This document shows positions 22,633 through 59,666 of a stretch of DNA of 64,000 bases, piece by piece (positions within the stretch are counted from its first letter, which is position 1; each line of letters starts with the position of its first letter). The notes under the pieces were generated by a model, which did not search any database, was not told the DNA's origin, and saw only the letters and a program-made list of their open reading frames with translations. Made by a program: the position numbers and the translations under genes. This stretch comes from Patescibacteria group bacterium (GTDB lineage Bacteria; Patescibacteriota; Patescibacteriia; JAXHNJ01): assembly GCA_034520665.1 (NCBI GenBank), contig JAXHNJ010000001.1, positions 386,579 to 450,578 on the forward strand. Direction: 5' to 3'.

Positions 22633-22638
22633 AATTAT

Positions 22639-23676: not shown

Positions 23677-23680
23677 AAAA

Positions 23681-24694: not shown

Positions 24695-24741
24695 AAATTA
24701 TATTATATATAAAAATATAGTACCATTTATAGCCTCTTTCG

Positions 24742-25935: not shown

Positions 25936-25937
25936 AG

Positions 25938-32288: not shown

Positions 32289-32331
32289 ATTTTGAGCTTA
32301 AATAATAACACATTTTAGGTCGTGGCGCAAC

Positions 32332-33204
32332 CTAATTTTTTCTTTGAAATACGGCAAAAAAAGGGGTTAATAAGGCTAAAAATAGACTTAAAGGTGTAAG
32401 TAAAGCCAACCAATAATAGGAAAAGGAGGAGTGATATTTTTTAAAATAATAAAGAAGGCTGCGGTTAAAATTTATTTGTGAGCGAATTGATTTAACTTTT
32501 TTAAAACTCTCTCCCCCATGGTGTATAATTTTAACCAAAGGGTAAAAATCAACTTTTAATCCTACTTCTTTAACGCGGCGACAAAAATCGACCTCTTCAA
32601 AAAGAATATAAAAATTTTCATCAAAGCCACCGACTTTCTCAAGAACAGAGCGCCTAATTAAAAAATAGGCTCCCATAACCTGATCAACTTCTTTACTTTC
32701 TTTATAATCAAAATCTTGCATCAGATATTTTCTTAAAGATCTAAGTTTAGGGAAAATATGATGGATTTTTAAAAGTATTAAAGTTTGCGACAGAGTGGTG
32801 GGAAAACGCCGACAAGAAGGCTGTAAACTCAAATCTGAGTTTAATATTTTAGGTCCCATTACACCGGTAAAGTGATTTTTTTTCATATAAGTAAGGCTTT
32901 TTTTCAGAGTATCTGGTAAAAGAACAGTATCTGGATTAAGCAGCAAAAGGTATTTTCCTTTTGATTGAGCCAGGCCTTGGTTAACGGCTGTGGCAAAGCC
33001 AAAATTTTTTTTATTACTTATTAGCTTAACTTGAGGAAATTTCTTTTTTATTAAAGATAGGGTATTATCTTTTGAATTATTATCAATAACAATAATTTCA
33101 AATTCTATGTTCTCGGAATTTTTATAAATTGAGTTTAAACAAATATTTAAATGTTTAGAGACATTCCAAGATACAATAATAATTGATAATTCTAGTCGGG
33201 GCAT
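32332..33204 (-). CDS. glycosyltransferase family 2
   Basis: LSIIIVSWN...IDNNSKDNT GT2 motif. Confidence 0.8.
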   Translation of the reverse strand: MPRLELSIIIVSWNVSKHLNICLNSIYKNSENIEFEIIVIDNNSKDNTLSLIKKKFPQVKLISNKKNFGFATAVNQGLAQSKGKYLLLLNPDTVLLPDTLKKSLTYMKKNHFTGVMGPKILNSDLSLQPSCRRFPTTLSQTLILLKIHHIFPKLRSLRKYLMQDFDYKESKEVDQVMGAYFLIRRSVLEKVGGFDENFYILFEEVDFCRRVKEVGLKVDFYPLVKIIHHGGESFKKVKSIRSQINFNRSLLYYFKKYHSSFSYYWLALLTPLSLFLALLTPFFAVFQRKN

Positions 33205-33206
33205 AA

Positions 33207-35027
33207 TTAATTTAATTTATGTTTCTTGGTAACCATTTTTTGGTATTTTTCTTTATTAATAGTTTTTGAAATCCCTTGTTTTCTCATCGGTCCTTTAAAT
33301 AAAATTTTATTTAGGGCCAAGCCTTTTTTTCCTTCTTTAATCATAGTAAGCCATAAGTCCCAATCCTGAAAACGAGCCAGTTTTTCATCAAAACCGGGAA
33401 AATCCTTTTTTTTCATCAAAGACATAGTGGAAATGTAATTATACTTTTTTAATCTATTTTTAGAAAATTTTAAAGGGTGGAATTTTTTTGAACCAAAAAT
33501 AAATCCGCTATAACAAAAAGAAACAAAGGGATTTAACTCAAGCACTTTAAACATCTCTAAAAGACAATTTGGTTTTAAGATTATATCAGAGTCACAGAAA
33601 AATAAATATTTACCTCTGGCTTTACTAGCTCCAAGATTACGAACAGCGGCCGCTTGATCCGGTAATTCACCTTTATGCTTTCTTTTTAAGACTAATAGAT
33701 TTTTATATTGTCTTAAAACTTGATTTAGTTTTTTATCCGGTCCGTCATTAATGACTATAATTTCGTAGTTTTTTAAACTTTGTAATTGAATGGAGTTTAA
33801 ACAAGAGTCTATAAAATCTGAAGCACCAAAAGCAGGAATAATAACACTGATCAAAGGCTTTTCATATTTTTTTGAAAGTTCATTATTATTTTTTAAAATA
33901 AATTTAACTTTTTTAATCTGAGTCTGCCAGTTAAAAGTCTTTTTTACCCAGTTAAAGCCCTTTTCACCTAATAATTTTGAGTATTCATAATTATTTAATA
34001 GTTTAATTACGGCCTGTGATATTTCATTAACACTTTTTGAATTAACAGCTAGACCGGTTTGTCTGTCTATTATTGTTTCTTTAGTGCCGCCGGCTAGGCC
34101 CAATATTACTGGAATTCTTTGGGATTGGGCCTCTAAATAGGCTAAACCAAAACTCTCTAAGTCTTTTTTTTCTTTTTCTTCACGAGTCGGCATAATAAAC
34201 AAATCAGCAGCCTGGTAAAAAGGTATTTTCTTTAATAAATTATCTTTAACAGCTCCGGTAAAAATTACCTTATTTTTCAAACCTAATTTTTCGGTTAAGT
34301 TTTGCAAATATTCTTTGTCCGGGCCATCTCCTACAATAAGGTAAATGAGATTAGGTATTTTTTTTAGTATTTTTGGCAGAGAGCGAATAACCATATCCTG
34401 TCCTTTTCTTTTAACTAGACGCCCTAAGGTAAGCAGTACTTTTTTATTATTTAAATTATATTTTTTTTTGATAAAATTAGAACTGGTTTTAACCTTAAAA
34501 ATATTCTGATTTAAAGAAGGATAAACTACTATAATTTTTGAGGGAAAAACACCTAGCTCGATAATTTTTTGTTTCATAAATTCTGTGTTGGCAATAACCC
34601 ACTGGGCGTTTTTTAGGTTCTTGGTCATGATTTTTTTCTGTAACCAATTTTTTTGAGGAATCAAAGTATCCACTCCGTGAGTATAAACTAAATAAGGTAT
34701 CTTAAATAATTTTTTAAAAACAAGACCAACTGTAACTAAATTAAAATAATGGCCAAATTGTAGATATTGGATTTTTTCTTGTTTAATAATTTTTTTTATC
34801 CGCCAAAAAAGAGGCAGCCAGGAGGGTTTAAAAAACCGCCAGGGATAAAAATTAAGGCGGATAATTTTCCTTTTGTATTTTTTATCAAAATCTCCCCTTG
34901 GCAAATCATCATCAGTTAATATAGATATTTTATCTTCAGGCAGTTGATAGCATAAATTTTTGAAATAATTTTCAATACCGCCAATTTTGGGAGGAAAGAA
35001 ATTAGTAATTAATAATGATTTTTTCAT
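33207..35027 (-). CDS. bifunctional glycosyltransferase (N-terminal GT4/GT-B fused to C-terminal GT2/GT-A)
   Basis: N-terminal half carries ESFGLAYLEAQ (E-x7-E). C-terminal half carries ISVIIPAFG...INDGPD (GT2). Confidence 0.75.
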   Translation of the reverse strand: MKKSLLITNFFPPKIGGIENYFKNLCYQLPEDKISILTDDDLPRGDFDKKYKRKIIRLNFYPWRFFKPSWLPLFWRIKKIIKQEKIQYLQFGHYFNLVTVGLVFKKLFKIPYLVYTHGVDTLIPQKNWLQKKIMTKNLKNAQWVIANTEFMKQKIIELGVFPSKIIVVYPSLNQNIFKVKTSSNFIKKKYNLNNKKVLLTLGRLVKRKGQDMVIRSLPKILKKIPNLIYLIVGDGPDKEYLQNLTEKLGLKNKVIFTGAVKDNLLKKIPFYQAADLFIMPTREEKEKKDLESFGLAYLEAQSQRIPVILGLAGGTKETIIDRQTGLAVNSKSVNEISQAVIKLLNNYEYSKLLGEKGFNWVKKTFNWQTQIKKVKFILKNNNELSKKYEKPLISVIIPAFGASDFIDSCLNSIQLQSLKNYEIIVINDGPDKKLNQVLRQYKNLLVLKRKHKGELPDQAAAVRNLGASKARGKYLFFCDSDIILKPNCLLEMFKVLELNPFVSFCYSGFIFGSKKFHPLKFSKNRLKKYNYISTMSLMKKKDFPGFDEKLARFQDWDLWLTMIKEGKKGLALNKILFKGPMRKQGISKTINKEKYQKMVTKKHKLN

Positions 35028-35030
35028 TTT

Positions 35031-36584
35031 TTACCGTCTAATTATAGATTTAATTACATATCGTAATTCTGAATACTTTATAATTTTTAATAAAAGTATT
35101 AGCGCTATGTATATTAGCACCCCGATGGGTATCAGTAAAATAAAATTAACAGCCGGTTTAAGCCAATAAATACTTAAAGCCATACCGAGCGAGGCGGTAA
35201 GGCTGCGAAAAAACCAGGAGACTATTTTTGCTTTATTGTATTTAATTATTTTTTGAGTCTGATAATAAGCCACTACAAAGAGAAAAACAGCTGAAGAAAG
35301 AGCGGCTATAGAAGCTCCGATGTGATTAAAGCGCGGTATTAAAATTAAATTAATTATGACATTAAAAGCGACTGTTAGGCCTATGTTTAGAGTATTTTTT
35401 TTCTGACGATTGGTAGCGTTTAAGACCGAACTTAAAATAAAATTAATAAAGATAAAAACTAAACCTAAAATTGAAATTCGAAAAGCTGGAATAGAGCGAG
35501 TATAATCACTGGTAAAAAGAACTGTAATTTTATCGGCTAAAACAAAAGCTCCTAAGGATATAGGTAAACTGATAATCATTAAATAACGAAAAGCATTTTC
35601 TACGGTTCTAGCTAAAATTTCTTGAGAAGAAATATAAAGTCTGGAAAGAGCTGGATAAATACTATTATTAAAAGCTAAGGGTATAAACTGAATAGCATAT
35701 GTTAGTTTATAGGCTACCGAGTACCAGCCGACATACTCTTCCCCACCCTGACCTTTTTTTAAAAAAGAGAGTAAGAGTATATCGATATAAGCATAGATTT
35801 TAGTAAAAATACCGGCCAGGAAAAAGGGCATAGCCATTTTAAAAAGTTTTCTTAAAAGAGAAAAATTAAGATAAAACCGAGGCTTTATATCAGTATGTTT
35901 TACTAATTTTATTAAGGCATACAAAAAATTACCGATAGCTCCGATAAGAATAGCTATACCGAGGACAATCGGCTGCTTAAAAATTTGCAGCATAACAATA
36001 CCTGAGCTAACCACCAAGAGCTGATATATTAAAGTGCCGATTGATTCATATTTTAAATTATGAAAGCCCCGGAAAACACCAAATATACTCAAACTAAAAG
36101 ATTCAAAAAGCATAACAAAGCCGGCAAAATAAACCAGAGACTTAGTAGTTTCTGGATAAGATAAAGTATTGATAGTAATATAGATAAGTAAAATAGCCGT
36201 AAAAGCAAAAAATACTTTCACCGTAAAAATAGCTGAAAAATACTTATGAGCCTTATTTTTAAAACGGGAGATTTCACGAATTAAAACCGGATTTAAACCT
36301 AAATCAACTAAAATACCAAAAACTGTAGTAAAGGAAACCGCAAAAACAAATTGGCCGGTACCAATATAGCCAATATAACGGGCATAATAAATAAAGTAAC
36401 CAAATGAGATTACTTTTTGTAGGGTGTAGGCAATGGTTAAAAATAAAGTATTACGAGAAACCTTATTTTCTCTGATTTGTTTAGACAATTTTCTTTTTTT
36501 ATATGTTTTATCTTTTTCTCCACTGCGGAGCCCGGCGAGCCCGTTTGAGACCGTATTTTTTTCTTTCTTTGACTCTTGGATCAC
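35031..36584 (-). CDS. polysaccharide flippase, Wzx/MOP superfamily
   Basis: About 14 TM helices. The 5' end overlaps the rpsI 3' end by ~77 nt, so the true start is probably a non-ATG codon further in, for example TTG at 36488. Confidence 0.65.
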   Translation of the reverse strand: MIQESKKEKNTVSNGLAGLRSGEKDKTYKKRKLSKQIRENKVSRNTLFLTIAYTLQKVISFGYFIYYARYIGYIGTGQFVFAVSFTTVFGILVDLGLNPVLIREISRFKNKAHKYFSAIFTVKVFFAFTAILLIYITINTLSYPETTKSLVYFAGFVMLFESFSLSIFGVFRGFHNLKYESIGTLIYQLLVVSSGIVMLQIFKQPIVLGIAILIGAIGNFLYALIKLVKHTDIKPRFYLNFSLLRKLFKMAMPFFLAGIFTKIYAYIDILLLSFLKKGQGGEEYVGWYSVAYKLTYAIQFIPLAFNNSIYPALSRLYISSQEILARTVENAFRYLMIISLPISLGAFVLADKITVLFTSDYTRSIPAFRISILGLVFIFINFILSSVLNATNRQKKNTLNIGLTVAFNVIINLILIPRFNHIGASIAALSSAVFLFVVAYYQTQKIIKYNKAKIVSWFFRSLTASLGMALSIYWLKPAVNFILLIPIGVLIYIALILLLKIIKYSELRYVIKSIIRR

Positions 36585-36972
36585 GTTTTAATAAACCTTC
36601 CGGTTTTAAGAGTTTGCGATTTTTTGGCTCTAAAGTTACTAAGATTCTGGACATGCCCAAAGAAATAGCTTCAACCTGTCCCCTCTTACCACCACCTTTA
36701 ACTTTAATTGTAAACTTACCAAATTTTTTTAAATTTCCGGTTACTTTTAATGGCTTTTCAATTATATTTTTGAACTCTAAGTTTACAAAATGCTCTTTAT
36801 AATCTTTTTGGTTAATAATAATCTCATTTTTACCCTTTTTGTAATATCTTACACGAGCCACCGCCGATTTACGCCGGCCAACGGCAAATATATAAGTTCT
36901 TTTTTTGGAACCTTTTTTACTTCTAGATTTTTTATTGGAAGATTTCTGAGTTTTTTTTGCTTTTTTTACCAT
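36508..36972 (-). CDS. rpsI: 30S ribosomal protein S9 with K-rich N-terminal extension
   Basis: Core YIFAVGRRKSAVARV and C-terminus RRAPQWRKR. Confidence 0.9.
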   Translation of the reverse strand: MVKKAKKTQKSSNKKSRSKKGSKKRTYIFAVGRRKSAVARVRYYKKGKNEIIINQKDYKEHFVNLEFKNIIEKPLKVTGNLKKFGKFTIKVKGGGKRGQVEAISLGMSRILVTLEPKNRKLLKPEGLLKRDPRVKERKKYGLKRARRAPQWRKR

Positions 36973-40514: not shown

Positions 40515-41357
40515 ATGCTAAATATTATGATTAATGGTAAAAAAATAATAATGTCAGACGATTATGGCTTTTGTTTTGGAGTTAAACGAGCTATAAGGGA
40601 GTTAAAAAAAACAAAAGGCCAAGCCTATACTCTAGGCCCAGTTATACACAATCCTCAAGTTGTCGATTACTTTAAGAAAAAGGGCATCAGACCTATTGAC
40701 AGACTTTCTAAAAAAATAAAACCAGGCAAACTTTTTATAAGAGCTCATGGAGTATCAGATCAAAAAAAAGAACAAGCAAAAAAAATGGGGTTTGAGATAT
40801 TTGATCTAACCTGTCCTTTTGTAAAAAAGGCTCAAATATTAGCTAAAAAACTAGAAAAACAAGGCTATCAAGTGGTTATTTTAGGCTTAAAAAACCACCC
40901 GGAAACTAAGGCTATAGCTGAAAATTTAAAAAATCCCATTATTTTACAAAATCATAAATGCTCATCCTTAAACAAAAATAAAATTGGTGTCATCTGCCAA
41001 ACAACTTCTAATATAAAAAATACTAAAAAAATATTAAATAAAATAAAAAAAACCGCTCAAGAGGTAAAAATTTATAATACAATCTGCCAAGCAACAAAAA
41101 AAAGGCAAAAAGCAGCCCATAAAATGGCCAGGCAATCAGATATAGTTATAGTTATCGGGGGTCGTTATTCCTCAAACACAAAGAAACTAAAACAGGTTTG
41201 CCAGGAGTATGGGCCCACCTACCATATTGAAACAGAAAAAGAATTAAAGAAAAAATGGTTTAAAAATAAAAAAACCATCGGTATTACCGCTGGGGCCTCT
41301 ACGCCGGACTGGATAATTAATAAAGTAGTTAAAAAGATAAAAGAAATTAATTCCTAA
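40515..41357 (+). CDS. ispH: 4-hydroxy-3-methylbut-2-enyl diphosphate reductase (IspH/LytB)
   Basis: GFCFGVKRAI first Cys motif and three-repeat IspH architecture. The real start is probably the later Met at ~40551 (MSDDYGFCFGV). A TTGACC ... TATGCT promoter-like pair lies at ~40489-40517. Confidence 0.8.
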   Translation: MLNIMINGKKIIMSDDYGFCFGVKRAIRELKKTKGQAYTLGPVIHNPQVVDYFKKKGIRPIDRLSKKIKPGKLFIRAHGVSDQKKEQAKKMGFEIFDLTCPFVKKAQILAKKLEKQGYQVVILGLKNHPETKAIAENLKNPIILQNHKCSSLNKNKIGVICQTTSNIKNTKKILNKIKKTAQEVKIYNTICQATKKRQKAAHKMARQSDIVIVIGGRYSSNTKKLKQVCQEYGPTYHIETEKELKKKWFKNKKTIGITAGASTPDWIINKVVKKIKEINS

Positions 41358-41365: not shown

Positions 41366-43159
41366 TTACTCCAAGACAGCTTTTATTCTCCTTACGCCTT
41401 TGGAGGATGATTTTTCGGATTTTATTTTAAAATGGCCTATCTCTGAGGTTTTCTTGACATGCGGACCAGCACAAATTTCCTTGGAAAAATCACCTACTTT
41501 ATAAACCTTTACTAGATCAGGATATTTTTCTTTGAAAAACGATAAAGCATCAGATTTAACCGCTTTTTCATAAGGCATTTCTTCGCAGGTTACTTTTAAA
41601 TCTTTTTCTATAATTTCATTTACCTTATCTTCCACTTCTTTTTTTTCTTGTTCAGTCATTTTTTGGGAATGCGAAAAATCAAATCTCAGTCTCTCCGGTT
41701 TTAAGTCTGAGCCCATCTGCTTAACATGGTCACCTAAGACTTCTCTTAAGGCCTGATGTAGTAAATGAGTAGCTGTATGCTGTTTAGTCACTTTTTCACC
41801 CAAGTCCCCCACGCCACCAAATTTTTTTTCGGCCCCAGCTCGGGATATTTTTTTGTGGGCCTCAACCATTTTTCCAAATTCTTTCTCATTAAATTGATAA
41901 CCCTTTTTCCTGATTAAGTTTGGGCTTAGACCATAAGTAGAATAAAGCTGAAAGGCTTCTTGAGCCGTTATTTTACGAGATGAGGGCTTTTTCTTTTCCG
42001 AAGATTTTTTTTTGTTTTTACCCATCTTTTTAAATACTTTTTCCACTTCTGTTTTTAAGATTTTATCATAAGTTTTGGTTTCATCACGTAAAAGAGTTAA
42101 AATATTCTCCTTTTTTTCCTTAAGACGAGGATAGTAAGGATTATATATCTCTATAACTTTTTCAACTAAGATTTCTAGAGAAAAATTAGTGCCTTCAAAC
42201 TGATCAATTAACCGCCTGAAAATACGGCGCAGAATATATCCTTCTTCTTTGTTCGAAAACTGAACGCCGTCAGCTATTAGAAAAACACAGGCCTTAATAT
42301 GATCAGCAATTATTCTTAAACTCTTGACTTTCTCAATTTCACTTTGTAACTTTTCAATTTGAGGATCTTTTTTAGCTTCTTCTATTATAGGTCTAAAAAG
42401 ATCAGTTTGAAAAACTGATGATTTTTTTTGCATTATCATAAGCAAACGTTCTAAACCCATACCCGTATCAATATTCTTAGTCGGTAAATCTTTAAACTTA
42501 CCTTGAGCGTCTTTGAGGTATTGAGTAAATACTAAATTCCATATTTCAACAAATCGTCCGCATTCACAATTGGGCTGACAATCTTTGCCTCTTGAGCAAG
42601 ATTGCCCGGTCAAATCGTAATGAATTTCTGAGCTTGGCCCACAAGGTCCGGTTTTACCCGGCGGCCCCCACCAGTTTTCTTTTCGACCAAATTCACTTAT
42701 TTTATCTTGATTAAGATAATTTTGCCATATTTTTATAGCTTCAAAATCTTTAACCACTTCATCATCACCTTTAAACACCGTGGCGTAGAGTCTTTTTTTA
42801 TTTAATTTCAGTTCTTTAACCAGAAATTCAAAAGCGTATTTTATAGCTTCTTCTTTGAAATATCCACCAATGGAAAAATTACCCATCATTTCAAAAAAAG
42901 TGAGGTGACTGGCATCTCCAACTGAATCAATATCAGAGGTACGAAAACATTTTTGGATACTGGTTAAATTTCTGTTTTTAAAATCTTTTTTAACTGACAA
43001 TTCTCCTAAATAATAGGGTTTAAATGGCTGCATACCAGCCGTAGTTAAGAGCACTGAGGAATCATTAGCTGGAATAAGTGAAGAACTGGCCATATGAGTA
43101 TGCTTTAATTTATTACCAAAATAATTTATAAACTTTTCGCGTATTTTTTTTGATTTCAT
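41366..43159 (-). CDS. alaS: alanyl-tRNA synthetase, short form lacking the C-terminal C-Ala domain
   Basis: Class II AlaS N-terminus (FINYFGNK...HTH...SSLIP) and editing-domain HxxxH (HTATHLLHQAL) with a CxxxH motif near the end. Only 597 aa. Confidence 0.85.
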   Translation of the reverse strand: MKSKKIREKFINYFGNKLKHTHMASSSLIPANDSSVLLTTAGMQPFKPYYLGELSVKKDFKNRNLTSIQKCFRTSDIDSVGDASHLTFFEMMGNFSIGGYFKEEAIKYAFEFLVKELKLNKKRLYATVFKGDDEVVKDFEAIKIWQNYLNQDKISEFGRKENWWGPPGKTGPCGPSSEIHYDLTGQSCSRGKDCQPNCECGRFVEIWNLVFTQYLKDAQGKFKDLPTKNIDTGMGLERLLMIMQKKSSVFQTDLFRPIIEEAKKDPQIEKLQSEIEKVKSLRIIADHIKACVFLIADGVQFSNKEEGYILRRIFRRLIDQFEGTNFSLEILVEKVIEIYNPYYPRLKEKKENILTLLRDETKTYDKILKTEVEKVFKKMGKNKKKSSEKKKPSSRKITAQEAFQLYSTYGLSPNLIRKKGYQFNEKEFGKMVEAHKKISRAGAEKKFGGVGDLGEKVTKQHTATHLLHQALREVLGDHVKQMGSDLKPERLRFDFSHSQKMTEQEKKEVEDKVNEIIEKDLKVTCEEMPYEKAVKSDALSFFKEKYPDLVKVYKVGDFSKEICAGPHVKKTSEIGHFKIKSEKSSSKGVRRIKAVLE

Positions 43160-43567
43160 TATTTGTTATTTTAACTATAAATAAAAAAATTTTCAAGGGT
43201 TAGGAAATAATTTAAATTAGCTTTAATAAGACTAGATATTACTAATTAGAATTAAGCAATACAAATACTATTTTCTAATAAACTATTATATGGTATAATA
43301 AATTTACTAAAATATATATTAATTCAGCCAGTTTTTTATAGATAGAATTTTATAAAACAGCAAAGATAGTGAAATTTAATAAGATTTTGAGTAAAATACT
43401 ACATACTCAACATTTATTGATAGTATAATTATAATCAGTGGTTTTTATATGGCTCAAAGCAAAAAAGATTACATGGTTAATTTCTTATTTTTACCAGTAG
43501 CAGTATTTTTATGTTGAATATTTTAAATCAAAATAATTAGTAAATTTAAAATATTAAAAATAAAATT

Positions 43568-45082
43568 ATGAATAAAAATAATTCGCGATTATTAAAATTA
43601 TTTTTTCTTGTTACTTTGTGTTTATTAATCACTTTATTTAATTTTCAGGAAGCTAAAGCTTTTGTTTTTGGCAGTTATCAAAACATTAGAAAATTTAATA
43701 ATCTTATTGACACTCCTGCTTCTTACAATAGCGGCCGTTTGCTCTTTGAAGATTCAGATTCAGTGACTGACAGCGCTAATTTATTTTGGGATAATTCTAA
43801 TCAATATTTAAGTGTGGGGGGAGCTAGCGCGAGTAATACATTAGACATACATGGCGGTATTGATTCTGATACTTTAAATACTGGCCAGGGTGATTATGAG
43901 CTTTATGCTATGAATCAAGATGTAGAAACTACTGATAATGTAACTTTTAATGACTTAACTATTTCATCTCCTTTAAATATTTATGCCTTATCGCATAATA
44001 GTTTTACTGGATTACCTGGATTACAGGGTGGCACGACTAACGAATATTATCATCTAACTAGTGCTGAATATAGTGGTTATAATAATACTAATTGGGATAA
44101 CGCTTATGACCATTCCCAAGATAACACACAAGCTCATTCAGATTATTTATTAAACACAGGAGACACAGCAACCGGAGATTATACTTTTGATACAAACACT
44201 TTTCACATTGACGCAACAAATAATAAAGTGGGAGTGGGCACAACCAGCCCAGCAGCAAGTTTACACGTAGTTAAAAGTGGGGGAACAGCAACAGATTCTA
44301 TTATTACAGTTGAGTCTACAAGTTCTTTAATTAACCCTCAAATTCGGTTTATTAATGATGAAGATGTTACAGCTCAATTTATTATGTCTCGTTCACCTTC
44401 TTCTACAGCCGGACAATTTATGATTCGTCAGCAAAGTAGTTCAGATGATATTGTTTTTGAAGTTGGCTCAAACTTAGAAGTTGCAAGATTTACAAATAAT
44501 ATGGTAGGTATAGGAACAAGCAGTCCAAGTTATGTTTTAGATGTTAAAGGTCGGAAAAGTATTGGCTCAGCTACTATTACTGGCTCTGGTTTAGATGATA
44601 TGAGCACAAGTGGAACGTTCACTGGCTCAGCAACTACTAATTATCGTGTGCAAATAGATGGTCTGGGCGACCCATTTTTGAAAACTCCAGATACTTTCAA
44701 ATGGTCAGATGATGGTGGCTCAACTTGGGATGCAACAACAGTAGATATTACTGGCTCAACTCAATCATTAAATAATGGAGTAAGAATAACTTTTGGAGCA
44801 ACCACTGGTCATGATTTAGGAGATTACTGGGATTTTACTGCAACTGTTATAGACCCTTTTTCAGTCCAAAGTGCAAGTGGGACAAATTTGTTTCATGTAG
44901 GGAATGATGGAGCAGTAACAAGAAGAGAACTATCGGCAGACCCTTCAGACCCAGATGAAGGAAGCCATGTTATTTGGCAAAGTGATGGAACTGGAACAGG
45001 AGATGATGGAGATATTATGATGAAAATAACTGCCGGTGGAACAACAAAAACTACTACACTAGTAGATTTTAGTGCAATATAA
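43568..45082 (+). CDS. secreted protein with three copies of a tail-fibre-like (V/I)G(V/I)GT(T/S)SP...L(H/D)V motif
   Basis: Signal peptide LLITLFNFQEAKA. The three motif copies are SVGGASASNTLDIHG, KVGVGTTSPAASLHVV and MVGIGTSSPSYVLDVKG. Composition is T/S/D/G-rich and G+C is higher than in neighbouring genes. Confidence 0.6.
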   Translation: MNKNNSRLLKLFFLVTLCLLITLFNFQEAKAFVFGSYQNIRKFNNLIDTPASYNSGRLLFEDSDSVTDSANLFWDNSNQYLSVGGASASNTLDIHGGIDSDTLNTGQGDYELYAMNQDVETTDNVTFNDLTISSPLNIYALSHNSFTGLPGLQGGTTNEYYHLTSAEYSGYNNTNWDNAYDHSQDNTQAHSDYLLNTGDTATGDYTFDTNTFHIDATNNKVGVGTTSPAASLHVVKSGGTATDSIITVESTSSLINPQIRFINDEDVTAQFIMSRSPSSTAGQFMIRQQSSSDDIVFEVGSNLEVARFTNNMVGIGTSSPSYVLDVKGRKSIGSATITGSGLDDMSTSGTFTGSATTNYRVQIDGLGDPFLKTPDTFKWSDDGGSTWDATTVDITGSTQSLNNGVRITFGATTGHDLGDYWDFTATVIDPFSVQSASGTNLFHVGNDGAVTRRELSADPSDPDEGSHVIWQSDGTGTGDDGDIMMKITAGGTTKTTTLVDFSAI

Positions 45083-45247
45083 AATGAAAACCCATTGGAG
45101 AACCGACTAAATACTCAAATCTAATAAGAATAGATGTTAATGCTCCAGCAGTCAGCAGCCGGAGCTGCCACCGGTGAATTATGGGCTGATAGCGATGATG
45201 CTTATACGGTTAAATTAGGCCAATAATTATTAAATAATACTTCTAAA

Positions 45248-48200
45248 ATGATAAAAAAAGTCAAAACAAAGTTTATATTATTCTTAGTCTTTTCCATATT
45301 TTTTTATTTATTAAAAATCCCTTCTATTTCTGCTATTCCTTCGGCTTACCAGAGATGTGAAACAAATAGCAGCTGCACTATTGGCGAATATGTTTTTGAA
45401 GATGATGGTCACACACCGATTATTACTGATAATTTCTGCCAAATTACCATTACCAACCCGAGTGACGGGGTTGAGGTCAATGCGGCTAATATGAGTGATA
45501 AAGATGATGGTTGGTATTATTATTCTGTTTCCGGCCTTACAGCAAAGGGTTTATACAGGGCTTTAATCTGTTGTGATGTGAGTGGTACTGATGAGCAATG
45601 TATCGACAAATCCTTCATAGTTGGAACTTCGCTTGATAACCTAAGAAAAGGTACTTTTGATTTTAATGGCCAGGCTGATTCTGGTACTACCACCACTCTA
45701 GTTGACGCTGAATTAATCCAGCCTGATGACTTTTGGAATGATTACAGTCTTATTATGATCTCAGGCAGCAATATTGGTCAAGAAAAAACTGTTTCTGATT
45801 TTGTTTCCAGCACTGACACCATAACTGTTTCTTCAGCTTTTTCTAATGCTGTTAGTGCTGGCGACGAATATATTTTAAAACACGAAACCAGTTTAATAAA
45901 AAACATTTGGACCTGGACTTCTGATACAGCTTCATTTTTTGCTAGTGCGGCTGGTGAAATATGGAGTTATACTGGGGCTTCCTTAGATACGACCGGCAAT
46001 GCTATAGCTAAGGTTTGGTCCTATGCTACCAGAACATTAACTGGCAATGACAACTTTAATGACCCCACTTCAGCTCAAATAGCCAGTGATGTCTGGTCTG
46101 AAGCCAGCCGAACTTTGACCGATTACAGTAATGATTTAAGTGCTAGTGATGTCTGGTCTTACGCCACACGCCAATTAACTTCCCGGTATACTAATGAAAA
46201 CACGCCAGTGGATCTAGCTCAAGTAGCTAATGTTTCTTTTTTAGCTACTTCGGCTGAACTTTCCACTACTGAAACTAATTTAACTAGTGAAATTGACGCT
46301 AATGAAACATTAATTAATAATCTTAATGATATTAGTGCTTCAGACGTTTGGTCTTACGCTAATCGCACCATTACTGACCCGGATAATATTTGGGAATACG
46401 CCTTAACACAAATCGGAGATACTGGCTCAATTGGAGAATTACTAAAAGATAATATTAACGCTACTATTTCTTCTCGGTCCTCGCATAGTGCTTCTGATGT
46501 CTGGAGCGTGGCCACCAGAACATTAACTGGCAATGACAACTTTAATGACCCCACTTCAGCTCAAATAGCCAGTGATGTCTGGTCTGAAGCCAGCCGAACT
46601 TTGACTGATTATGGTAATGATATTACTGCTTTAGATGTTTGGAATGTTTTAAGCTCTACTCTAACTACTACTGATAGTATTGGTGAACAATTAAGTGATA
46701 ATATAGATACTACTATTTCTAGCCGGGCCAGCCAAACCTCTCTAGATTCTGCCCAAACAGATATTACTTATATCCGCTCAGAAATTGACTCTGTCTATAC
46801 AGACACCCAACATATTAGCACTACTGTAGATAATATACTTTCCAATTGGTCCTCTTATACAGCTTCAGATATTATTGATGATTTAGATGGTATTAAAAAT
46901 TTAATTGGTGCTTCTACAGATTCCTCCGCTACAGAAACAATATTCGGTCGGGCCAAATACATTCAGGAAAAATGGGGCAACCAGACTGCTGAAAATATTT
47001 ACAACACATCTAATTCGACTCTAACTACTATAAATAGTGTACAAACTGAACTGGGTTATAATGGACTCTCCTCAACAGCTAAATCCGACCTTCAAAACAT
47101 TAAAACTTATACTGATAATTTAGAAACTTACCTTGGTTCACCTTCAGATAATTCTTCAACTGATTCCTTGTTCGGCAAAGTAGCCGCTGTAAAAACTAAG
47201 CTAGATCAACTTGACACTTTAGAAAGTAAGCTCAATACAGTAGAGACAGTGGTTGATGCCTTAAGCAGCTCTAGTTCAACAATTAGCGGCGAAATAAGTA
47301 TAGATGAAACTGACCCCATTTATACTTTGCTTAATAATATCAGCCGTGATATTCAAGTTATTGCCGGTGATCAAGGATATAATTTAGATAATCTTTATAA
47401 TATATCCCAGGAAAATTCGACCGATCTGACCTATCTTAGTAATAAAACAGCTGATTTAAAAACAGTTATTGATATTAATAAAAATCTAATAACTAAAATT
47501 ATAAATGAACCAGTTATTAAAACCTGGTATACTGAAGGATCAATTATTCTGAATATTCTAGTTATTAATCCGCCGGATACTGAAAGAACAGTTACTATTA
47601 AAGAATACTTACCTGAAGAAATTAGGGAAGAACATATCATAGAATTACCCAAAGAGTTAGAGCTTAATTATGACGCTGATCTGGATAAATATTATGTAAC
47701 AGCTGAAGTTAGATTGAAAGCCAACGAAAGAATAATCTTTAAAGTTAAAGCTGAAGATATTTATAAAATTTCTGATGATAAAGTTAATAATTTAAGAAAT
47801 CAGGCTAAAAGCCTGATGGAACCCCTTAAAAATACTAATTATTTTGCCCAGGCTTCACTTTTAAAATCAGAGATTGACGTTAATCTTGATACTGTTGTCA
47901 GAAATCAAGAAAAAAAACTTAGCAATGTCTTAAGAAAAATTTCACTGTTTAGGGAATGTCAAAAAAATCTTCAAAAAGTTGAGTTAAATTTAGAATCTCT
48001 AAAAACGCTTAATTCCGAAGTGAGCAGTCAACAGGGTATTTTAGGCAATTTACTCGGTGTTTCAACAACTATGACCTGGGCTATTATTATAATGCTGGTT
48101 GTCGGCATAGCTGTTCTTATGATTTTGCTTTATGTTTTACTGGCAAAACAACGGGCTATGGAACATCATATATCCGGTGGGGAAAAATTAAAAGCACCGC

Positions 48201-48379
48201 CTCTAGTTGATGTGAGAAAACACGCTACTCGCATTAAAGGTGGTCTTATTACTTATTTTTTGCCTCCTTTTGGTAAACCAGTGGTTGAATTGGGCCGGTT
48301 AATTAGTCTAATTAAAATTCTGCTAACAGTAGGTTTCTTGATAATTTTATTATTTTTAGTAATATATTTTTATTTCTAA
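45248..48379 (+). CDS. large (1043 aa) surface protein: signal peptide, S/T/D/N-rich repetitive ectodomain, two C-terminal TM helices
   Basis: Signal peptide FSIFFYLLKIPSISA. About 8 copies of an SDVWSYAxRTLT-type motif. C-terminal hydrophobic helices AIIIMLVVGIAVLMILLYVLLA and ILLTVGFLIILLFLVIYFYF. Confidence 0.6.
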   Translation: MIKKVKTKFILFLVFSIFFYLLKIPSISAIPSAYQRCETNSSCTIGEYVFEDDGHTPIITDNFCQITITNPSDGVEVNAANMSDKDDGWYYYSVSGLTAKGLYRALICCDVSGTDEQCIDKSFIVGTSLDNLRKGTFDFNGQADSGTTTTLVDAELIQPDDFWNDYSLIMISGSNIGQEKTVSDFVSSTDTITVSSAFSNAVSAGDEYILKHETSLIKNIWTWTSDTASFFASAAGEIWSYTGASLDTTGNAIAKVWSYATRTLTGNDNFNDPTSAQIASDVWSEASRTLTDYSNDLSASDVWSYATRQLTSRYTNENTPVDLAQVANVSFLATSAELSTTETNLTSEIDANETLINNLNDISASDVWSYANRTITDPDNIWEYALTQIGDTGSIGELLKDNINATISSRSSHSASDVWSVATRTLTGNDNFNDPTSAQIASDVWSEASRTLTDYGNDITALDVWNVLSSTLTTTDSIGEQLSDNIDTTISSRASQTSLDSAQTDITYIRSEIDSVYTDTQHISTTVDNILSNWSSYTASDIIDDLDGIKNLIGASTDSSATETIFGRAKYIQEKWGNQTAENIYNTSNSTLTTINSVQTELGYNGLSSTAKSDLQNIKTYTDNLETYLGSPSDNSSTDSLFGKVAAVKTKLDQLDTLESKLNTVETVVDALSSSSSTISGEISIDETDPIYTLLNNISRDIQVIAGDQGYNLDNLYNISQENSTDLTYLSNKTADLKTVIDINKNLITKIINEPVIKTWYTEGSIILNILVINPPDTERTVTIKEYLPEEIREEHIIELPKELELNYDADLDKYYVTAEVRLKANERIIFKVKAEDIYKISDDKVNNLRNQAKSLMEPLKNTNYFAQASLLKSEIDVNLDTVVRNQEKKLSNVLRKISLFRECQKNLQKVELNLESLKTLNSEVSSQQGILGNLLGVSTTMTWAIIIMLVVGIAVLMILLYVLLAKQRAMEHHISGGEKLKAPPLVDVRKHATRIKGGLITYFLPPFGKPVVELGRLISLIKILLTVGFLIILLFLVIYFYF
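46028..46125. repeat. 98-nt direct repeat, copy 1 (1 mismatch versus copy 2), inside the 1043-aa surface-protein gene
   Basis: accagaacattaactggcaatgacaactttaatgaccccacttcagctcaaatagccagtgatgtctggtctgaagccagccgaactttgac is identical at 46028-46119 and 46514-46605. Confidence 0.85.
46514..46611. repeat. 98-nt direct repeat, copy 2
   Basis: Partner of 46028-46125; it encodes the second TRTLTGNDNFNDPTSAQIASDVWSEASRTLTDY block. Confidence 0.85.
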
Positions 48380-48519
48380 ATTATTATAATTATGCCGATA
48401 GAATCAAATTCGTATTCGGATAATATTAAAATATTTTTCATAATTATTAGTTCTTTTTTTTTACCTCTGGCAAGCAACCAAAAGCATTAAATGCTTATCT
48501 AAGGCTTATCCGCTTAAGT

Positions 48520-48552
48520 AAAGACTATCTTTTAGTCTCCGCTATTTTTTTA
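48520..48552 (+). terminator. putative bidirectional intrinsic terminator between the surface-protein gene and mnmA
   Basis: Hairpin agactatcttttagtct followed by ttttttt on the plus strand. An upstream aagcattaaatgctt hairpin is also present. Confidence 0.4.
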
Positions 48553-49570
48553 TTATACCACCGCCGATTAGAAAATTATTCTTATAAATAGCCACTGATT
48601 GCCCCGGAGTTAAAGCCCTTTGACTTTTTTTGAACTGAATAATGTATTTCCCTTTATTTTTTTTAAAATTGGCTAGACTACCCCGATGACGGTAACGCGG
48701 TTTAGCAACTACACTAGTTGGTAGGTTTATTTTTTTTATAATATTAACTAATTTCAAATTAACTCTTTTTTGTAAAAGATCCGATTTATCTCTGGTTACA
48801 AATATAATATTTTTCTTAACATTCTTATCAACTACATACCAGGGACCGCCGGATAGTCCCAGTCCAGTCCTCTGTCCCAAGGTGTAAAGAAAAACCCCCT
48901 GATGATCACCTAAAAATTCTCTACTACCTTTCTCCAAAATTTTTCCTTTTTTAGTTTTAATTTTATTTTTTAAAAATTCATTTAAAAAGCCCGGCACAAA
49001 ACATATTTCTTGAGATGATTTATAATCTTTTGAAATAAACTTTTGTTTTTTCGCTATTTTTGAAACCCTTTTCGATTTAACCTTACCTAAAGGGAAAAGA
49101 CAGTTTTTTATAAACTGGGGTTTTAAACGCCATAAAAAATATGATTGATCTTTTTCTTTATCGTGGGCCTTTTTTAGGTAGAATTTATTTTTAATTTTTG
49201 CTCTTTGTACGTAATGACCCGTAGCAATAAAGTCAGCTTTCATTTCTTTAGCTTTTCTATAAAATAAGCCAAATTTAATCAAGTGGTTACAAACAATACA
49301 GGGATTAGGCGTTAATCCCAGTTTATACTGCTTAACAAAATCCTGAATTACTCTTTTTTTGAACTCTTTTTTAAAATCCCAGACCATAAAAGGAATCTGT
49401 AATTTTTTGGCTGTTTTTTTAGCTCTAACTAATTTAATTTTTTCTTGTCCTTTAAAAAGTTTAAAAAATACCGCCGTTACTTCATAACCAGATTTTCTTA
49501 ATAAATACCCGGCCACGGCTGAGTCACGGCCGCCGGAAAGAGCAAGAAAAACTTTTTTTCTTTTTTTCAT
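48542..49570 (-). CDS. mnmA: tRNA-specific 2-thiouridylase MnmA
   Basis: PP-loop ALSGGRDSAV, conserved Cys residues and a C-terminal beta-barrel region. Confidence 0.9.
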   Translation of the reverse strand: MKKRKKVFLALSGGRDSAVAGYLLRKSGYEVTAVFFKLFKGQEKIKLVRAKKTAKKLQIPFMVWDFKKEFKKRVIQDFVKQYKLGLTPNPCIVCNHLIKFGLFYRKAKEMKADFIATGHYVQRAKIKNKFYLKKAHDKEKDQSYFLWRLKPQFIKNCLFPLGKVKSKRVSKIAKKQKFISKDYKSSQEICFVPGFLNEFLKNKIKTKKGKILEKGSREFLGDHQGVFLYTLGQRTGLGLSGGPWYVVDKNVKKNIIFVTRDKSDLLQKRVNLKLVNIIKKINLPTSVVAKPRYRHRGSLANFKKNKGKYIIQFKKSQRALTPGQSVAIYKNNFLIGGGIIKK

Positions 49571-56978: not shown

Positions 56979-57092
56979 TCCAAAACCAAAAAACTATAAC
57001 TTTACTCCTGCCCGGCTTTAGCAAAAGCGGCTATAACTAAATCCGATAGCAAAAAACAAATAAATAAGGATTACCAATTTAAATTAAAAAAT

Positions 57093-57638
57093 TTATGGCT
57101 TCTTTTTAGCTGTTTTTTTGGATTTCTTTTTAGTCAGTTTCTTGGTTTTTTTCTTTGGGGCTGGCTTTTTTGTCTTAACTTTCTTGGCTTGAGATTTTTT
57201 CTTGACCACTGGCTGTTCCAAGATACTGATAACCTTATCCAATTTGTAGCCTAAGGATTTTAATTGCTCAGCTAGCTGCTTATTGCCGGCTCCATCGCGG
57301 TTTCTCCGGTCACTTCGGCCACGCCAGCTTTTATTGCCTCGCCGATCGCCTGACCGGCCTTCTTTGGCAAAACAGTCATTACAGTAGATTGGTTTGCCAC
57401 TGGTCGGCCGAAAAGGCACTTGGCATTCCTGGCCGCATTGATCACAAACCGCTGAGAACATCGGCCGATCGCCTTTTCTAAAATCACGCCTTTTTGATCG
57501 GTTTGGTTGGTTTTCTTTTTGCTTCTCAAAGCAATGGCTGCATAAAACCGGCTTGCCACTGGTCGGCCGAAAAGGGACCTGGCAGGCCTGGCCACACTGA
57601 CTGCAGGTGGCTGGGAACATTTCTTTTTTAGAGTACAT
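57093..57638 (-). CDS. tandem zinc-ribbon protein (two CxxCGxxCxVPFRPTSGKPxxCxxCF modules) with lysine-rich C-terminal tail; likely nucleic-acid binding
   Basis: CSQCGQACQVPFRPTSGKPVLCSHCFEK and CDQCGQECQVPFRPTSGKPIYCNDCFAK modules, then the KKKSQAKKVKTKKPAPKKKTKK tail. The gene is visibly GC-rich and duplicated at the nucleotide level. Confidence 0.6.
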   Translation of the reverse strand: MYSKKEMFPATCSQCGQACQVPFRPTSGKPVLCSHCFEKQKENQPNRSKRRDFRKGDRPMFSAVCDQCGQECQVPFRPTSGKPIYCNDCFAKEGRSGDRRGNKSWRGRSDRRNRDGAGNKQLAEQLKSLGYKLDKVISILEQPVVKKKSQAKKVKTKKPAPKKKTKKLTKKKSKKTAKKKP

Positions 57639-57667
57639 ATAATTTTTTAGTTTAGTTTTAAGAATAT

Positions 57668-57859
57668 TTATAATATTTCTTTGACCCGGCCAACTTCTCC
57701 TGACTGGAGCCGAACCTTAATACCGTGCGGATGATAGGGCGAATTAGTTAAAATATCCTGAACCACCCCTGGGGTCAGCTTTCCGCTTAATTGATCTTTT
57801 TTCTTGACCATAGCCACGCGCTGGCCTACTCTGATATCCTCTCTATTATGGCTGTTCAT
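57668..57859 (-). CDS. small conserved protein, YwbE/DUF2196-like
   Basis: 63 aa with a VKKKDQLSGKLTPGVVQDILTNSPYHPHGIKVRLQSGEVGRVKEIL pattern. Confidence 0.45.
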   Translation of the reverse strand: MNSHNREDIRVGQRVAMVKKKDQLSGKLTPGVVQDILTNSPYHPHGIKVRLQSGEVGRVKEIL

Positions 57860-57928
57860 AGGCTTATTATACTCCTTTTTTGAAAATAAAAAAACCCTTT
57901 CCTAATTCCACTTTTTTAGTCAAATCAA

Positions 57929-57951
57929 AAAACCCTTAAAAAAAGGGTTTC
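57929..57951 (-). terminator. intrinsic terminator hairpin (aaccctt-aaaaa-aagggtt) with T-run on the minus strand
   Basis: Hairpin stem 57931-57937 pairing with 57943-57949. It lies ~370 nt downstream of the DEAD-box helicase stop; on the minus strand it is followed by ttttgatttg. Confidence 0.45.
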
Positions 57952-58316
57952 AATTTACTTCTTTTTATAGAGTCGGAACGAATCTATCCTTTTGGGCCGC
58001 TCAATGATTTGGGCCAGATAAACCTGACGTTTAACTCTTATTTTTAAGAAAAACTGATACTGTTTTGGTTTTTTATTTCCGCTGATCTTCGCGACGACAT
58101 TTTATAAACATGCTCGTCTGTATGACTTTTTTGAAGGGCGAATAAAACCAACAAATACTTGATTAAGTATCTTAGCAAACTTTATCAGTCTTGTCAAGAG
58201 AGATGAGTTTAGGGCTTAAAAAATGGTATTTTGTCTCATGTTTCTTCAATATAACTGATAACTACCGATAGAAGCTTTTTAATAAAAAAATAAAATCTAA
58301 AATAAGTTTTTCAATA

Positions 58317-59588
58317 TTACCTTGACTTTCGAAAATTCCTTTTCTGTCTTTGACGGCCTTGATTGACTCTTCTTTTGCTATAGCGACGGCCAAACTTCTT
58401 CCGTGAACGTGAATAATTATAAGATTTTTTTTTCTTAGAATATCCTTTTTTTGGCAAATTCTTGGCCGAGATTGAACTTTTTTTACTAACCACAAGCTGT
58501 TTTTTTATCAATCGTTCGATATCTCGGACATCACGCCCTTGATCAGAGGTAGCGAAAGAAATAGCTTTTCCTTTTTTTCCGGCCCGAGCGGTCCGCCCAA
58601 TCCGATGGACATAGTCATCAGGAGTGCTCGGTAAATCATAATTTATAACCACTTCAATATTTTTTACATCAATCCCGCGAGCCGCGATATCCGTGGCCAC
58701 TAAAATTCTATATCTACCCGTCTTAAAGCCTTCAATGGCTGTTTGGCGCTGAGCCAGGCTGCGGTTAGAGTGAATTTCGTGGGCTGAAAAACCCATGGCT
58801 CGAATAATCTTGGCTAGTTTTTTGGTGCCCCATTTGGTTCGACAAAAAACCAAAACCGAACCGGAGAATTGGTTAAGAATATTTTTTAAGAATGATATTT
58901 TTTCATTGCCTTTTAGAAAAATAACTTCCTGATCGACCTCTTTAACCGTGGTTCCCGACTGTGATATTTCTACCCTTAAAGGCAGGTGCATATGCCGGCT
59001 GGCCAGGGACACAATAGAAGAAGGCATAGTAGCCGAAAAAAGCAGAGTCTGTCTTTTTTTAGAAATTTGCTTAATAATCTTTTCAATTTGAGGGGCAAAG
59101 CCCATATCAAGCATGCGGTCAGCTTCATCAAGCGTTAAAATTCCCACCTGATTTAGAATTGATTTATCACGGGAAAGAAGATCAATCAGCCGGCCGGGGG
59201 TGGCCATTATAACATGCGGTTTATTTTTCAAGGCCTTTTTTTGCATTTTGGCAGAAGCACCCCCAATAACCACGGCTGTTTTAATATTTAAAGATTTTCC
59301 AAATTGTAAAAATACTTGGTTTACTTGAGCAGCCAGTTCCCTGGTCGGAACCAAAACCAGTCCCCGTTTTTTTAGGCGGGCTATATTCTGTATCATCGGT
59401 ATAACAAAGGCCAAGGTTTTACCGGTGCCAGTTTGAGCAATACCCATAAGATCCTGGCCTTGTATAGCTAAAGGAATGGTTTTGCTTTGAATCGGGGTCG
59501 GTTTCTTAAAATTATTTCGATCAAGTATCTGCCGTAATTTTGGCGCTATACTCAGACCTTCAAAATTTGTCTCTGATTGGTTGGTCAT
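58317..59588 (-). CDS. DEAD-box ATP-dependent RNA helicase with basic C-terminal tail
   Basis: Q-motif region, AQTGTGKT (motif I), DEAD, SAT and HRIGRTARAG (motif VI). Confidence 0.9.
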   Translation of the reverse strand: MTNQSETNFEGLSIAPKLRQILDRNNFKKPTPIQSKTIPLAIQGQDLMGIAQTGTGKTLAFVIPMIQNIARLKKRGLVLVPTRELAAQVNQVFLQFGKSLNIKTAVVIGGASAKMQKKALKNKPHVIMATPGRLIDLLSRDKSILNQVGILTLDEADRMLDMGFAPQIEKIIKQISKKRQTLLFSATMPSSIVSLASRHMHLPLRVEISQSGTTVKEVDQEVIFLKGNEKISFLKNILNQFSGSVLVFCRTKWGTKKLAKIIRAMGFSAHEIHSNRSLAQRQTAIEGFKTGRYRILVATDIAARGIDVKNIEVVINYDLPSTPDDYVHRIGRTARAGKKGKAISFATSDQGRDVRDIERLIKKQLVVSKKSSISAKNLPKKGYSKKKKSYNYSRSRKKFGRRYSKRRVNQGRQRQKRNFRKSR

Positions 59589-59666
59589 ATTTTTTATATT
59601 AGTGTTAGTTATACTTATAAATAAAAATTATTTTCTGGCAGCAAATAAAGCGATAGTCATAAATAT

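Follow-up and report, generated by a model that had tools for sequence, protein, structure and literature searches.

A tail-fibre-like secreted protein and a membrane-anchored stalk protein encoded side by side in a Patescibacterium: a candidate surface adhesin device

By what means ultrasmall Patescibacteria locate their host cells and stay attached to them is largely unexplained; in the literature we surveyed, type IV pili are the experimentally supported factor in host attachment, and adhesins outside Saccharibacteria have only been guessed from generic domains. Two adjacent plus-strand genes within a 64-kb stretch of contig JAXHNJ010000001.1 of a Patescibacteria group bacterium (hereafter the window, in whose positions coordinates are given) raise the question of whether such a cell could carry an attachment device of its own. 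The genes encode proteins that we call P1 and P2, identical to the NCBI records U5L76_02200 and U5L76_02205, both entered as 'hypothetical protein' of a metagenome-assembled genome (MAG) on a contig of 455,760 bp. An earlier note on this DNA had taken the two for a tail-fibre-like surface pair and a candidate host-attachment apparatus, and our open reading frame (ORF) listing returns exactly the two ORFs that it had named:

43568..45082, plus strand: P1, secreted tail-fibre-like protein of 504 aa (ORF; modular homology)
45248..48379, plus strand: P2, membrane-anchored stalk protein of 1043 aa (ORF; AlphaFold model with a mean predicted local distance difference test score, pLDDT, of 73)

Our analysis indicates that P1 is a mosaic of modules common to phage tail proteins, whereas P2, which had also been thought tail-fibre-like, is instead a mostly helical stalk with immunoglobulin (Ig)-like domains that belongs to a Patescibacteria-specific family. 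We consider it about an even call that the two together form a stalk-plus-fibre adhesin device on the surface of this member of the candidate phyla radiation (CPR). From its N-terminus onward, P1 is laid out as follows, an arrow marking signal peptide cleavage here and below:

43568..43660, plus strand: signal peptide, residues 1-31, predicted cleavage AKA↓FVFGS (hydropathy; AlphaFold helix 5-24)
43691..43897, plus strand: one unit of a fibre repeat (L.DTP.sY ... lsVGg....LdihG), residues ~42-110 (phmmer)
44186..44569, plus strand: beta-helix segment, residues 207-334, with two capping loops (VGVGTTSPAASLHV at 221; VGIGTSSPSYVLDV at 313) (PDB 8OJN)
44555..44857, plus strand: Asp-box (WSDDGGSTW) beta-sandwich, residues 330-430 (pLDDT 92-98)
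44909..45082, plus strand: C-terminal module of 57 aa, residues 448-504 (ELSADPSDPDEGSHVIWQSDGTGTGDDGDIMMKITAGGTTKTTTLVDFSAI) (homologue alignments)

The likeness of P1 to tail fibres, which the earlier note had drawn from a repeated motif, is borne out by homology. Residues 207-334 match the crystal construct of Bd3182 from Bdellovibrio (PDB 8OJN, Bd3182 632-782) with an expectation value (E) of 2.9e-5, spanning residues 11-144 of the 152 in that chain, and both capping loops are near-identical (KVGVGTTSPAASLHV in P1, RVGVGTTAPTSALHV in Bd3182). The same region matches phrog_5906 (E 3.5e-10), and residues 197-328 match the annotated tail fibre of Pelagibacter phage HTVC168P at 38.6% identity (E 1e-6); homologues of P1 also include proteins with Peptidase_S74, Baseplate_J or sheath domains. 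A search against phage family profiles, proposed earlier as a check, did return matches, to two PHROGs families only (phrog_5906 and phrog_1417, over residues 201-283), function being unassigned in both. As for the motif itself, the three copies first counted hold only roughly: [VI]G[VI]GT[TS]SP has two exact copies, at residues 221 and 313 (0 of 20,000 shuffles), and two degenerate copies lie at residues ~80-97 (LSVGGASASNTLDIHGG) and ~441-452. Homology of this kind suggests a fibrous fold for P1, whose monomer model has an N-terminal region of low confidence and fibre regions with pLDDT below 50.

The N-terminus of P1 bears the predicted signal peptide that had been claimed for it, with a hydrophobic stretch at residues 5-29 (core 11-27), a basic n-region and small residues at AKA↓F. 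This AxA↓F site is kept in the orthologue P0053 (AEA↓FVFGS), the only protein with which an exhaustive phmmer search found the true N-terminus of P1 in common; a word-index search with residues 1-120 gave one match. Only 17 of 112 P1 homologues have a signal-like N-terminus, and P1 belongs to this secreted, cell-encoded minority. The repeat that follows the signal (residues ~42-120) has 383 phmmer matches among 1.84 billion representatives, many of them over several stretches, and its unit reaches up to 32 copies in giant proteins.

At the opposite end, the C-terminal module recurs at 69-95% identity over residues 448-504 in 17 proteins, and six more homologues end in it within longer alignments of lower identity; one of these 23 proteins, P0025, is encoded on a phage-like contig. 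Like the Asp-box domain, the module turns up again among baseplate, sheath and fibre proteins of phages. Another homologue, P0009, is collinear with P1 over residues 221-464 and then continues into a Peptidase_S74 chaperone. Because the module of P1 stands at the S74 position of P0009, we infer that residues 448-504 may act as a C-terminal trimerisation or tip element. P1 itself has no Pfam match to Peptidase_S74 and no catalytic SDxxxK motif, and neither Pfam nor NCBIfam gave anything significant for the protein as a whole. A Foldseek search of the PDB with P1 returned nothing at E < 1e-3, the top local similarities being to FlgK and sheath decoration domains.

Between the beta-helix and the C-terminal module lies the beta-sandwich, which contains a single Asp-box and is common to about 96 of 119 homologues among the matches listed, some of them fused to Baseplate_J, sheath or S74 domains. 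Asp-boxes are typical of sialidases and other glycosidases, and tailspikes of the endosialidase type can have beta-helix fibres edged by capping loops (PMC10769870); together with a gene for a GH43/BNR-like lipoprotein 2.3 kb from P2, this opens the reading of P1 as a secreted, tailspike-like depolymerase that degrades host or environmental polysaccharide for feeding, with P2 either unrelated or its anchor. Against it, we detected no catalytic domain or glycosidase family in P1, and the beta-helix segment is short, at ~130 aa. A profile of residues 330-430 found no significant relative in the PDB or Pfam: sialidase matches stayed at E >= 0.25 and covered the Asp-box hairpin only, and BNR matches were weak. 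The best match of these residues in BFVD reached E 2.6e-5, and the BFVD matches were uncharacterised phage proteins only. We therefore regard a depolymerase as quite improbable.

Kinship with phages raises a second alternative, namely that P1 is no adhesin but a phage tail-fibre gene left behind or captured recently (a cryptic prophage remnant), or else a decoy that imitates the binding of phages to their receptors or blocks it, its 'signal peptide' being incidental. Most P1 homologues indeed have no signal, and many either sit on phage contigs or are joined to baseplate or sheath domains: homologues occur on phage contigs L008 and L009, and P0006 is one that lies in a phage structural-type array with a weak P22-portal Pfam match, as seen on L008. 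In addition, a protein encoded on a phage-like contig matches the C-terminal 57 aa of P1 at 95% identity. Yet the homologues P0003 and P0053 have cellular contexts, the ORF of P1 is intact, and a canonical signal and cleavage site are kept in cellular homologues (P0053 and those at loci L004 and L006) in non-phage contexts. P1 lies outside any prophage or module of phage structural genes, with alaS, ispH, ribosomal genes and mnmA around it; a Pfam scan of the neighbours and the ten larger ORFs found no integrase or other phage gene, ARAGORN predicted no tRNA gene anywhere in the 64 kb of the window, and the G+C content at third codon positions (GC3) is native. A remnant or decoy is on these grounds very unlikely in our estimate. 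Given the Sec-type signal peptide, the native codon composition and the location between alaS and mnmA, we read P1 as a domesticated cellular gene rather than a prophage remnant.

The composition of the two genes agrees with the earlier description in part. Both proteins are rich in S, T, D, N and G, at a fraction of 0.50 (P1) and 0.41 (P2) against 0.27 +/- 0.05 for 57 ORFs of the window. The higher G+C claimed for them, by contrast, did not hold up: gene GC is 0.358 (P1) and 0.354 (P2) against a window mean of 0.335 +/- 0.045, an excess within 0.5 standard deviations, and GC3 is 0.19 (P1) and 0.26 (P2), typical or low for the window. We attribute the slight excess to amino-acid composition, not to foreign origin. 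A horizontal-transfer island was considered and rejected, GC3 being native, tRNA genes absent and flanking repeats uninformative.

P2, for its part, would be exported and anchored by elements at its two ends, between which its AlphaFold model and alignments place the following:

45350..45880, plus strand: distal head, in which an Ig-like, Cys-containing beta-sandwich (residues 35-126) is followed by a small beta-barrel (139-211) (pLDDT ~90-96)
45884..46687, plus strand: W-repeat array, residues ~213-480, eight DVWSYATRTLT-type units (predicted helical, low confidence)
46679..48028, plus strand: helical stalk in two segments, residues 478-750 and 843-927, on either side of a beta-sandwich at 756-835 (pLDDT 82-97)
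48062..48376, plus strand: membrane anchor, TM1 (939-974), a basic loop (predicted cytoplasmic) and TM2 (1012-1043), TM denoting a transmembrane helix (hydropathy and helices)

The signal peptide (hydrophobic residues 4-31, basic n-region, predicted cleavage ISA↓IPS) and the two C-terminal TM helices of P2 are both as first described, the helices being placed at 931-971 and 1012-1043 by Kyte-Doolittle hydropathy and at 939-974 and 1015-1042 in the AlphaFold model. The loop between them is K/R-rich and basic, and for that reason an outside-in-outside topology would fit the anchor. Together, the secretion signals and TM topology of P1 and P2 are consistent with display at the cell surface. The repeats of P2 also stood up to counting: eight copies of the type (V/I)W(S/N/E)xxxx(R/S)xLT lie at residues 257, 283, 303, 368, 382, 419, 445 and 465 (0 of 10,000 shuffles), and a 149-nt direct repeat of 87% identity (46008-46156 and 46494-46642) underlies two of them. 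Among P2 relatives the copy number ranges from 0 to 33, as would fit an array that serves as a length-variable spacer.

We found 222 relatives of P2, and the named ones are all Patescibacteria (Paceibacterota, Doudnabacteria, Nomurabacteria, Minisyncoccia, Moraniibacteriota and Nealsonbacteria). P2 aligns collinearly over its length with eight full-length relatives (42-56% identity), and this alignment (A3) defines what we call the P2-type subfamily, whose layout P2 follows throughout: a signal peptide, an Ig-like head (A↓IPAxxQRCE), a beta-barrel, W-repeats, a conserved helical stalk with a beta-sandwich, a GVSTTMTWAI TM helix, a basic loop and a second TM helix. Stalk and anchor are the best conserved parts, with 57-59% identity to P0122, P0123 and P0125 over residues 689-1041, many invariant columns, and an invariant GVSxTMxWAI...VG...LM..L motif in TM1; no Pfam model covers them. 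The distal head is kept in the subfamily, but another head takes its place in L013 and L018. P2 alone lacks the two Ig-like domains (YRAKL...STGVYEYTY; ...NEG..GYEYQYEWCVV...CGG.DD) that all eight relatives have between the stalk segments (A3 columns ~1000-1200), and has an expanded W-repeat array instead. In more distant relatives, which have the N-terminal Ig-like head and the W-repeats in common with P2, the C-terminal end is formed by MG2 plus dockerin, or by SH3, in place of the TM stalk; P2 itself has no match to dockerin (PF00404), MG2 (PF01835) or SH3, the Pfam search at gathering score giving only a sub-threshold DUF7310. NCBIfam gave nothing significant for P2, a PDB sequence search nothing, and Foldseek only generic Ig, FN3 and MG sandwiches at E >= 1.5e-3. 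Cytoplasmic enzymes, which might have told against a surface role, did not turn up as close homologues of either protein.

What ties the two genes together is their recurrent linkage. New here is the observation that, in six of nine distinct P2-type loci with usable upstream sequence (the window included), a secreted protein whose mature N-terminus is of the form A↓(F/L/M)(V/I/A)FGS, for short xxFGS, is encoded upstream of the P2-type gene on the same strand:

Window: P1, 504 aa; junction AKA↓FVFGS; gap to the P2-type gene 166 bp
L004 (= L005, L016, L021): 403 aa; VQA↓FVFGS; gap 345 bp
L010 / L012: P0053, 459 aa; AEA↓FVFGS; gap 1.9 kb
L006: 619 aa; VQA↓LVFGS; gap 2.5 kb
L002, 1-552: small secreted protein with Tat-like signal; AQA↓LIFGS; 4.3 kb upstream; TatA/C nearby
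L011, 4729-5430: small secreted protein with Tat-like signal; AQA↓MAFGS; 4.5 kb upstream; TatA/C nearby

Four of the six are fibre-like, and all four (window, L004, L010/L012 and L006) have capping-loop motifs and differ in their distal parts; the two small proteins of L002 and L011 have the Tat-like signals KKRYFLK and RKRFFLK, respectively, and are 46% identical to each other. The xxFGS junction motif occurs nowhere else in the 338 kb that we scanned in six frames. Moreover, in L013 (1068-6239) and L018 (198-5951) the P2-type stalk is fused to an N-terminal head of ~600 aa whose homologue in L002 (865-2628; E 1e-17 and 4e-9) has a gene of its own, upstream of the one for the stalk. This is a Rosetta-stone-type fusion, and upstream-encoded proteins and the stalk can therefore form one polypeptide. 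Similar gene pairs in related genomes thus suggest, without proving, one surface attachment device; the earlier idea that the genes make up one apparatus gains support from recurrent linkage in other genomes, and the two products may be in physical contact.

From these elements we posit the following working model. A Sec-type signal peptide would direct the export of P2, and its two C-terminal helices would anchor it in the cytoplasmic membrane, from where it would project outward as a long, mostly helical stalk with an internal beta-sandwich, beyond which would come the W-repeat spacer of variable length and then the distal head with its Ig-like domain and small beta-barrel. P1 would be exported as a secreted fibre of phage tail-fibre modules, presumably trimeric, running from the N-terminal fibre repeat through the beta-helix between capping loops and the Asp-box beta-sandwich to the 57-aa C-terminal module. 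Its conserved mature N-terminus (FVFGS...) would keep it at the surface, most likely by attachment to P2 or to a layer that depends on P2, so that the distal modules (the Asp-box domain and the C-terminal module) could engage a glycan or a protein of another cell (the host) or of a surface, in the manner of phage fibres and of the Bdellovibrio mosaic adhesive trimer (MAT) fibres. On this model the pair may serve as an adhesin or in host attachment; the alternative raised in the earlier note, a phage receptor or decoy, is likewise conjectural.

Several points weigh against this model. The xxFGS linkage is absent in three of the nine loci, and two of the six positive ones (L002 and L011) have, close to TatA/C, a small xxFGS protein that does not resemble a fibre; xxFGS may mark a wider class of secreted proteins, as a sorting or docking tag, and not be a P2-docking peptide. 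Because the loci were collected through relatives of P2, they offer no separate baseline for the frequency of xxFGS proteins across Patescibacteria genomes. Other genes also recur beside P2-type genes (PrsW-like membrane protein, ECF sigma, TatA/C) and are absent in this window. Contact between P1 and P2, trimerisation of P1 and the ligand are presumed; the monomer model of P1 is confident only at residues 330-430, and its fibrous fold comes from homology.

Several of these points feed the view that P1 and P2 are independent neighbours whose adjacency is functionally meaningless, P2 being a structural envelope protein (an S-layer-like stalk or spacer, or an envelope-stress-regulated component) and P1 a separate secreted fibre or lectin. 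P2-type genes do have varied neighbours (TatA/TatC, ECF sigma with a putative anti-sigma, PrsW-like), three of nine loci have no fibre gene, the 165-bp spacer has room for a separate promoter, and distant P2 relatives have dockerin, MG2 and SH3 domains typical of general surface proteins. This is countered by the same-strand upstream xxFGS proteins in loci of different lineages, by the absence of the motif from the other ~330 kb scanned, and by the fusion in L013 and L018, in which an upstream partner is physically joined to the stalk. We hold independence to be a tentative and rather doubtful alternative. A bolder extension of the stalk-plus-fibre model, which we offer as speculation and think unlikely, is that Patescibacteria have a hitherto undescribed modular surface-display system in which a P2-family stalk docks interchangeable secreted ligands through A↓xxFGS, several of them built from modules exchanged with phage tail fibres; an episymbiont would then recognise its host by phage-type receptor-binding hardware, and the 57-aa module, with its close counterpart on the phage-like contig, would be a sign that modules are still being exchanged with phages that share the habitat or the host.

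The genes that recur beside P2-type genes elsewhere deserve a record of their own. A PrsW-protease-like membrane protein of 140-150 aa is encoded directly 3' of the P2-type gene in five other loci, and a similar gene lies upstream in a sixth:

L001, 4059-4511: PrsW-like
L011, 13399-13857: PrsW-like
L012, 6313-6765: PrsW-like
L017, 1776-2201: PrsW-like
L020, 4784-5239: PrsW-like
L004, 3732-4151: PrsW-like, upstream of the P2-type gene

An extracytoplasmic function (ECF) sigma factor gene with a small downstream gene recurs in L002-L005 and L014, and TatA/TatC in L002, L011 and L020. None of these adjoins P2 in the window.

The setting of P1 and P2 is a chromosomal housekeeping one, in a window that is AT-rich throughout (GC 0.33 overall) and holds no paralogue of either protein. 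Their neighbours are core genes, P1 being sited between alaS and mnmA:

37.7-40.0 kb: ribosomal proteins S13 and S4, and RpoA
40515-41357, plus strand: IspH/LytB
41366-43159, minus strand: AlaRS (alaS), 597 aa, on the upstream side of P1
48542-49570, minus strand: MnmA (mnmA), past P2

The pair does interrupt a minus-strand array, as had been remarked, but ispH is likewise on the plus strand. AlaRS has its catalytic core and tRNA_SAD and lacks a long C-terminal extension, which genome reduction may explain. The terminator-like hairpins said to flank the genes were not recovered: the scanner calls none in the spacers, spacer folds have z-scores of about 0 against shuffled sequence, and terminator and promoter counts across the scanned positions 43000-48700 are at shuffle level. 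The 408-bp region between the divergent alaS and P1 (43160-43567) is very AT-rich and contains several sigma-70-like hexamer pairs, at about the shuffle rate. Between the two genes lies a short spacer:

45083..45247, plus strand: P1-P2 spacer of 165 bp, with a weak hairpin (45142-45165) and a 30-codon ORF (45134-45226)

The hairpin has a fold z-score of -0.01 and is no more stable than shuffled sequence. The plus-strand ORF, MLMLQQSAAGAATGELWADSDDAYTVKLGQ followed by a stop, lies in the locally GC-rich stretch that also forms this hairpin; it has no homologue among the P1- and P2-type loci and proteins compared, and may be what is left of an earlier fibre C-terminus, or may have arisen by chance.

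Farther out, a long envelope cluster on the minus strand (~17000-36600), which ends ~7 kb upstream of P1, points to a surface polysaccharide: it encodes a PBP2-type transpeptidase, a DUF4012 protein, a Wzy-like O-antigen ligase, a fused GT4/GT2 glycosyltransferase and a MurJ/Wzx-like polysaccharide flippase. On the other side, the lipoprotein gene near P2 (50679-51596, minus strand) encodes 305 aa with a lipoprotein-like N-terminus (…LAGC) and weak GH43/BNR-like matches, likely another secreted glycan-active protein. Local G+C is higher at 57000-62000 (0.41-0.47, GC3 up to 0.49) than in the window as a whole; this stretch spans a 181-aa ORF, a DEAD-box helicase and BipA/TypA.

Our literature search found no description of tail-fibre-like secreted proteins in Patescibacteria, nor of the P2 family. 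We read P1 as a candidate adhesin domesticated from a phage fibre and tied to a lineage-specific membrane stalk. If true, P1 and P2 would give a concrete, testable candidate for how these cells recognise their hosts and, in parallel to the MAT fibres that Bdellovibrio uses on its prey, a second instance in which a bacterium that depends on other cells has reused receptor-binding modules of phages. Genome-wide surveys, pull-down and structure work could take the conserved xxFGS mature N-terminus and the P2 family as simple handles. Were the linkage due to chance, an ordinary pair of uncharacterised surface proteins would remain.

Among known systems, the MAT fibres are a signal-peptide-bearing family on the surface of the predator Bdellovibrio bacteriovorus, homotrimers with a conserved ~130-aa beta-rich domain directly after the signal peptide and an adhesive C-terminal tip; their member Bd3182 (PDB 8OJN/8ONB/8ONC) contains a trimeric beta-helix edged by capping loops of the consensus VG(G/N)-small-x-x-P-x-x-x-L, a feature that the L-shaped fibre of T5 and the stalk of the K1F endosialidase also have (Caulton et al., Nat Microbiol 2024, PMC10769870). 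Like the MATs, P1 is cell-encoded, has a signal peptide and is phage-tail-fibre-like with mosaic distal modules; it aligns to the whole Bd3182 beta-helix with nearly identical capping loops, the loop motif being exact at residues 221 and 313, and presumably belongs to an organism that must recognise other cells. The likeness lies in signal peptide and capping loops, and since P1 has no S74 domain, it is the non-S74 MAT subgroup that it resembles. In contrast to the MAT constructs cited, which reach residues 843-1151, P1 has only 504 aa, and it comes from a Patescibacterium with its gene linked to a membrane-stalk gene, a link not reported for MATs. Phage fibres and tailspikes of the S74 type, which end in a Peptidase_S74 intramolecular chaperone (the T5 pb1 L-shaped fibre, 4UW8; the K1F endosialidase, 3GW6), share the capping-loop beta-helix module with P1, as the HTVC168P tail fibre shares the region matched above, but P1 differs from the S74 type in its secretion signal, its housekeeping location and a 57-aa end module in place of S74.

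For P2, the closest parallels are surface proteins. Patescibacteria proteins with dockerin, MG2, SH3 or FN3 domains are of a kind proposed as epibiont adhesins, among them SEML1_0315, an essential dockerin protein of Southlakia epibionticum (Wang et al., Cell 2023, PMC10633639). Distant P2 relatives end in such domains and are likened to SEML1_0315 by domain kind, whereas the P2 subfamily ends in a helical stalk and two TM helices. In Sulfolobales, SlaB is a membrane-anchored stalk that carries the outer surface component SlaA. That system belongs to a different domain of life, and P2 differs from SlaB in its two TM helices and its repeat array; as a working analogy only, the two pairs would nevertheless share a long helical stalk with beta-sandwiches, a C-terminal TM anchor and a separately encoded partner that would face outward.

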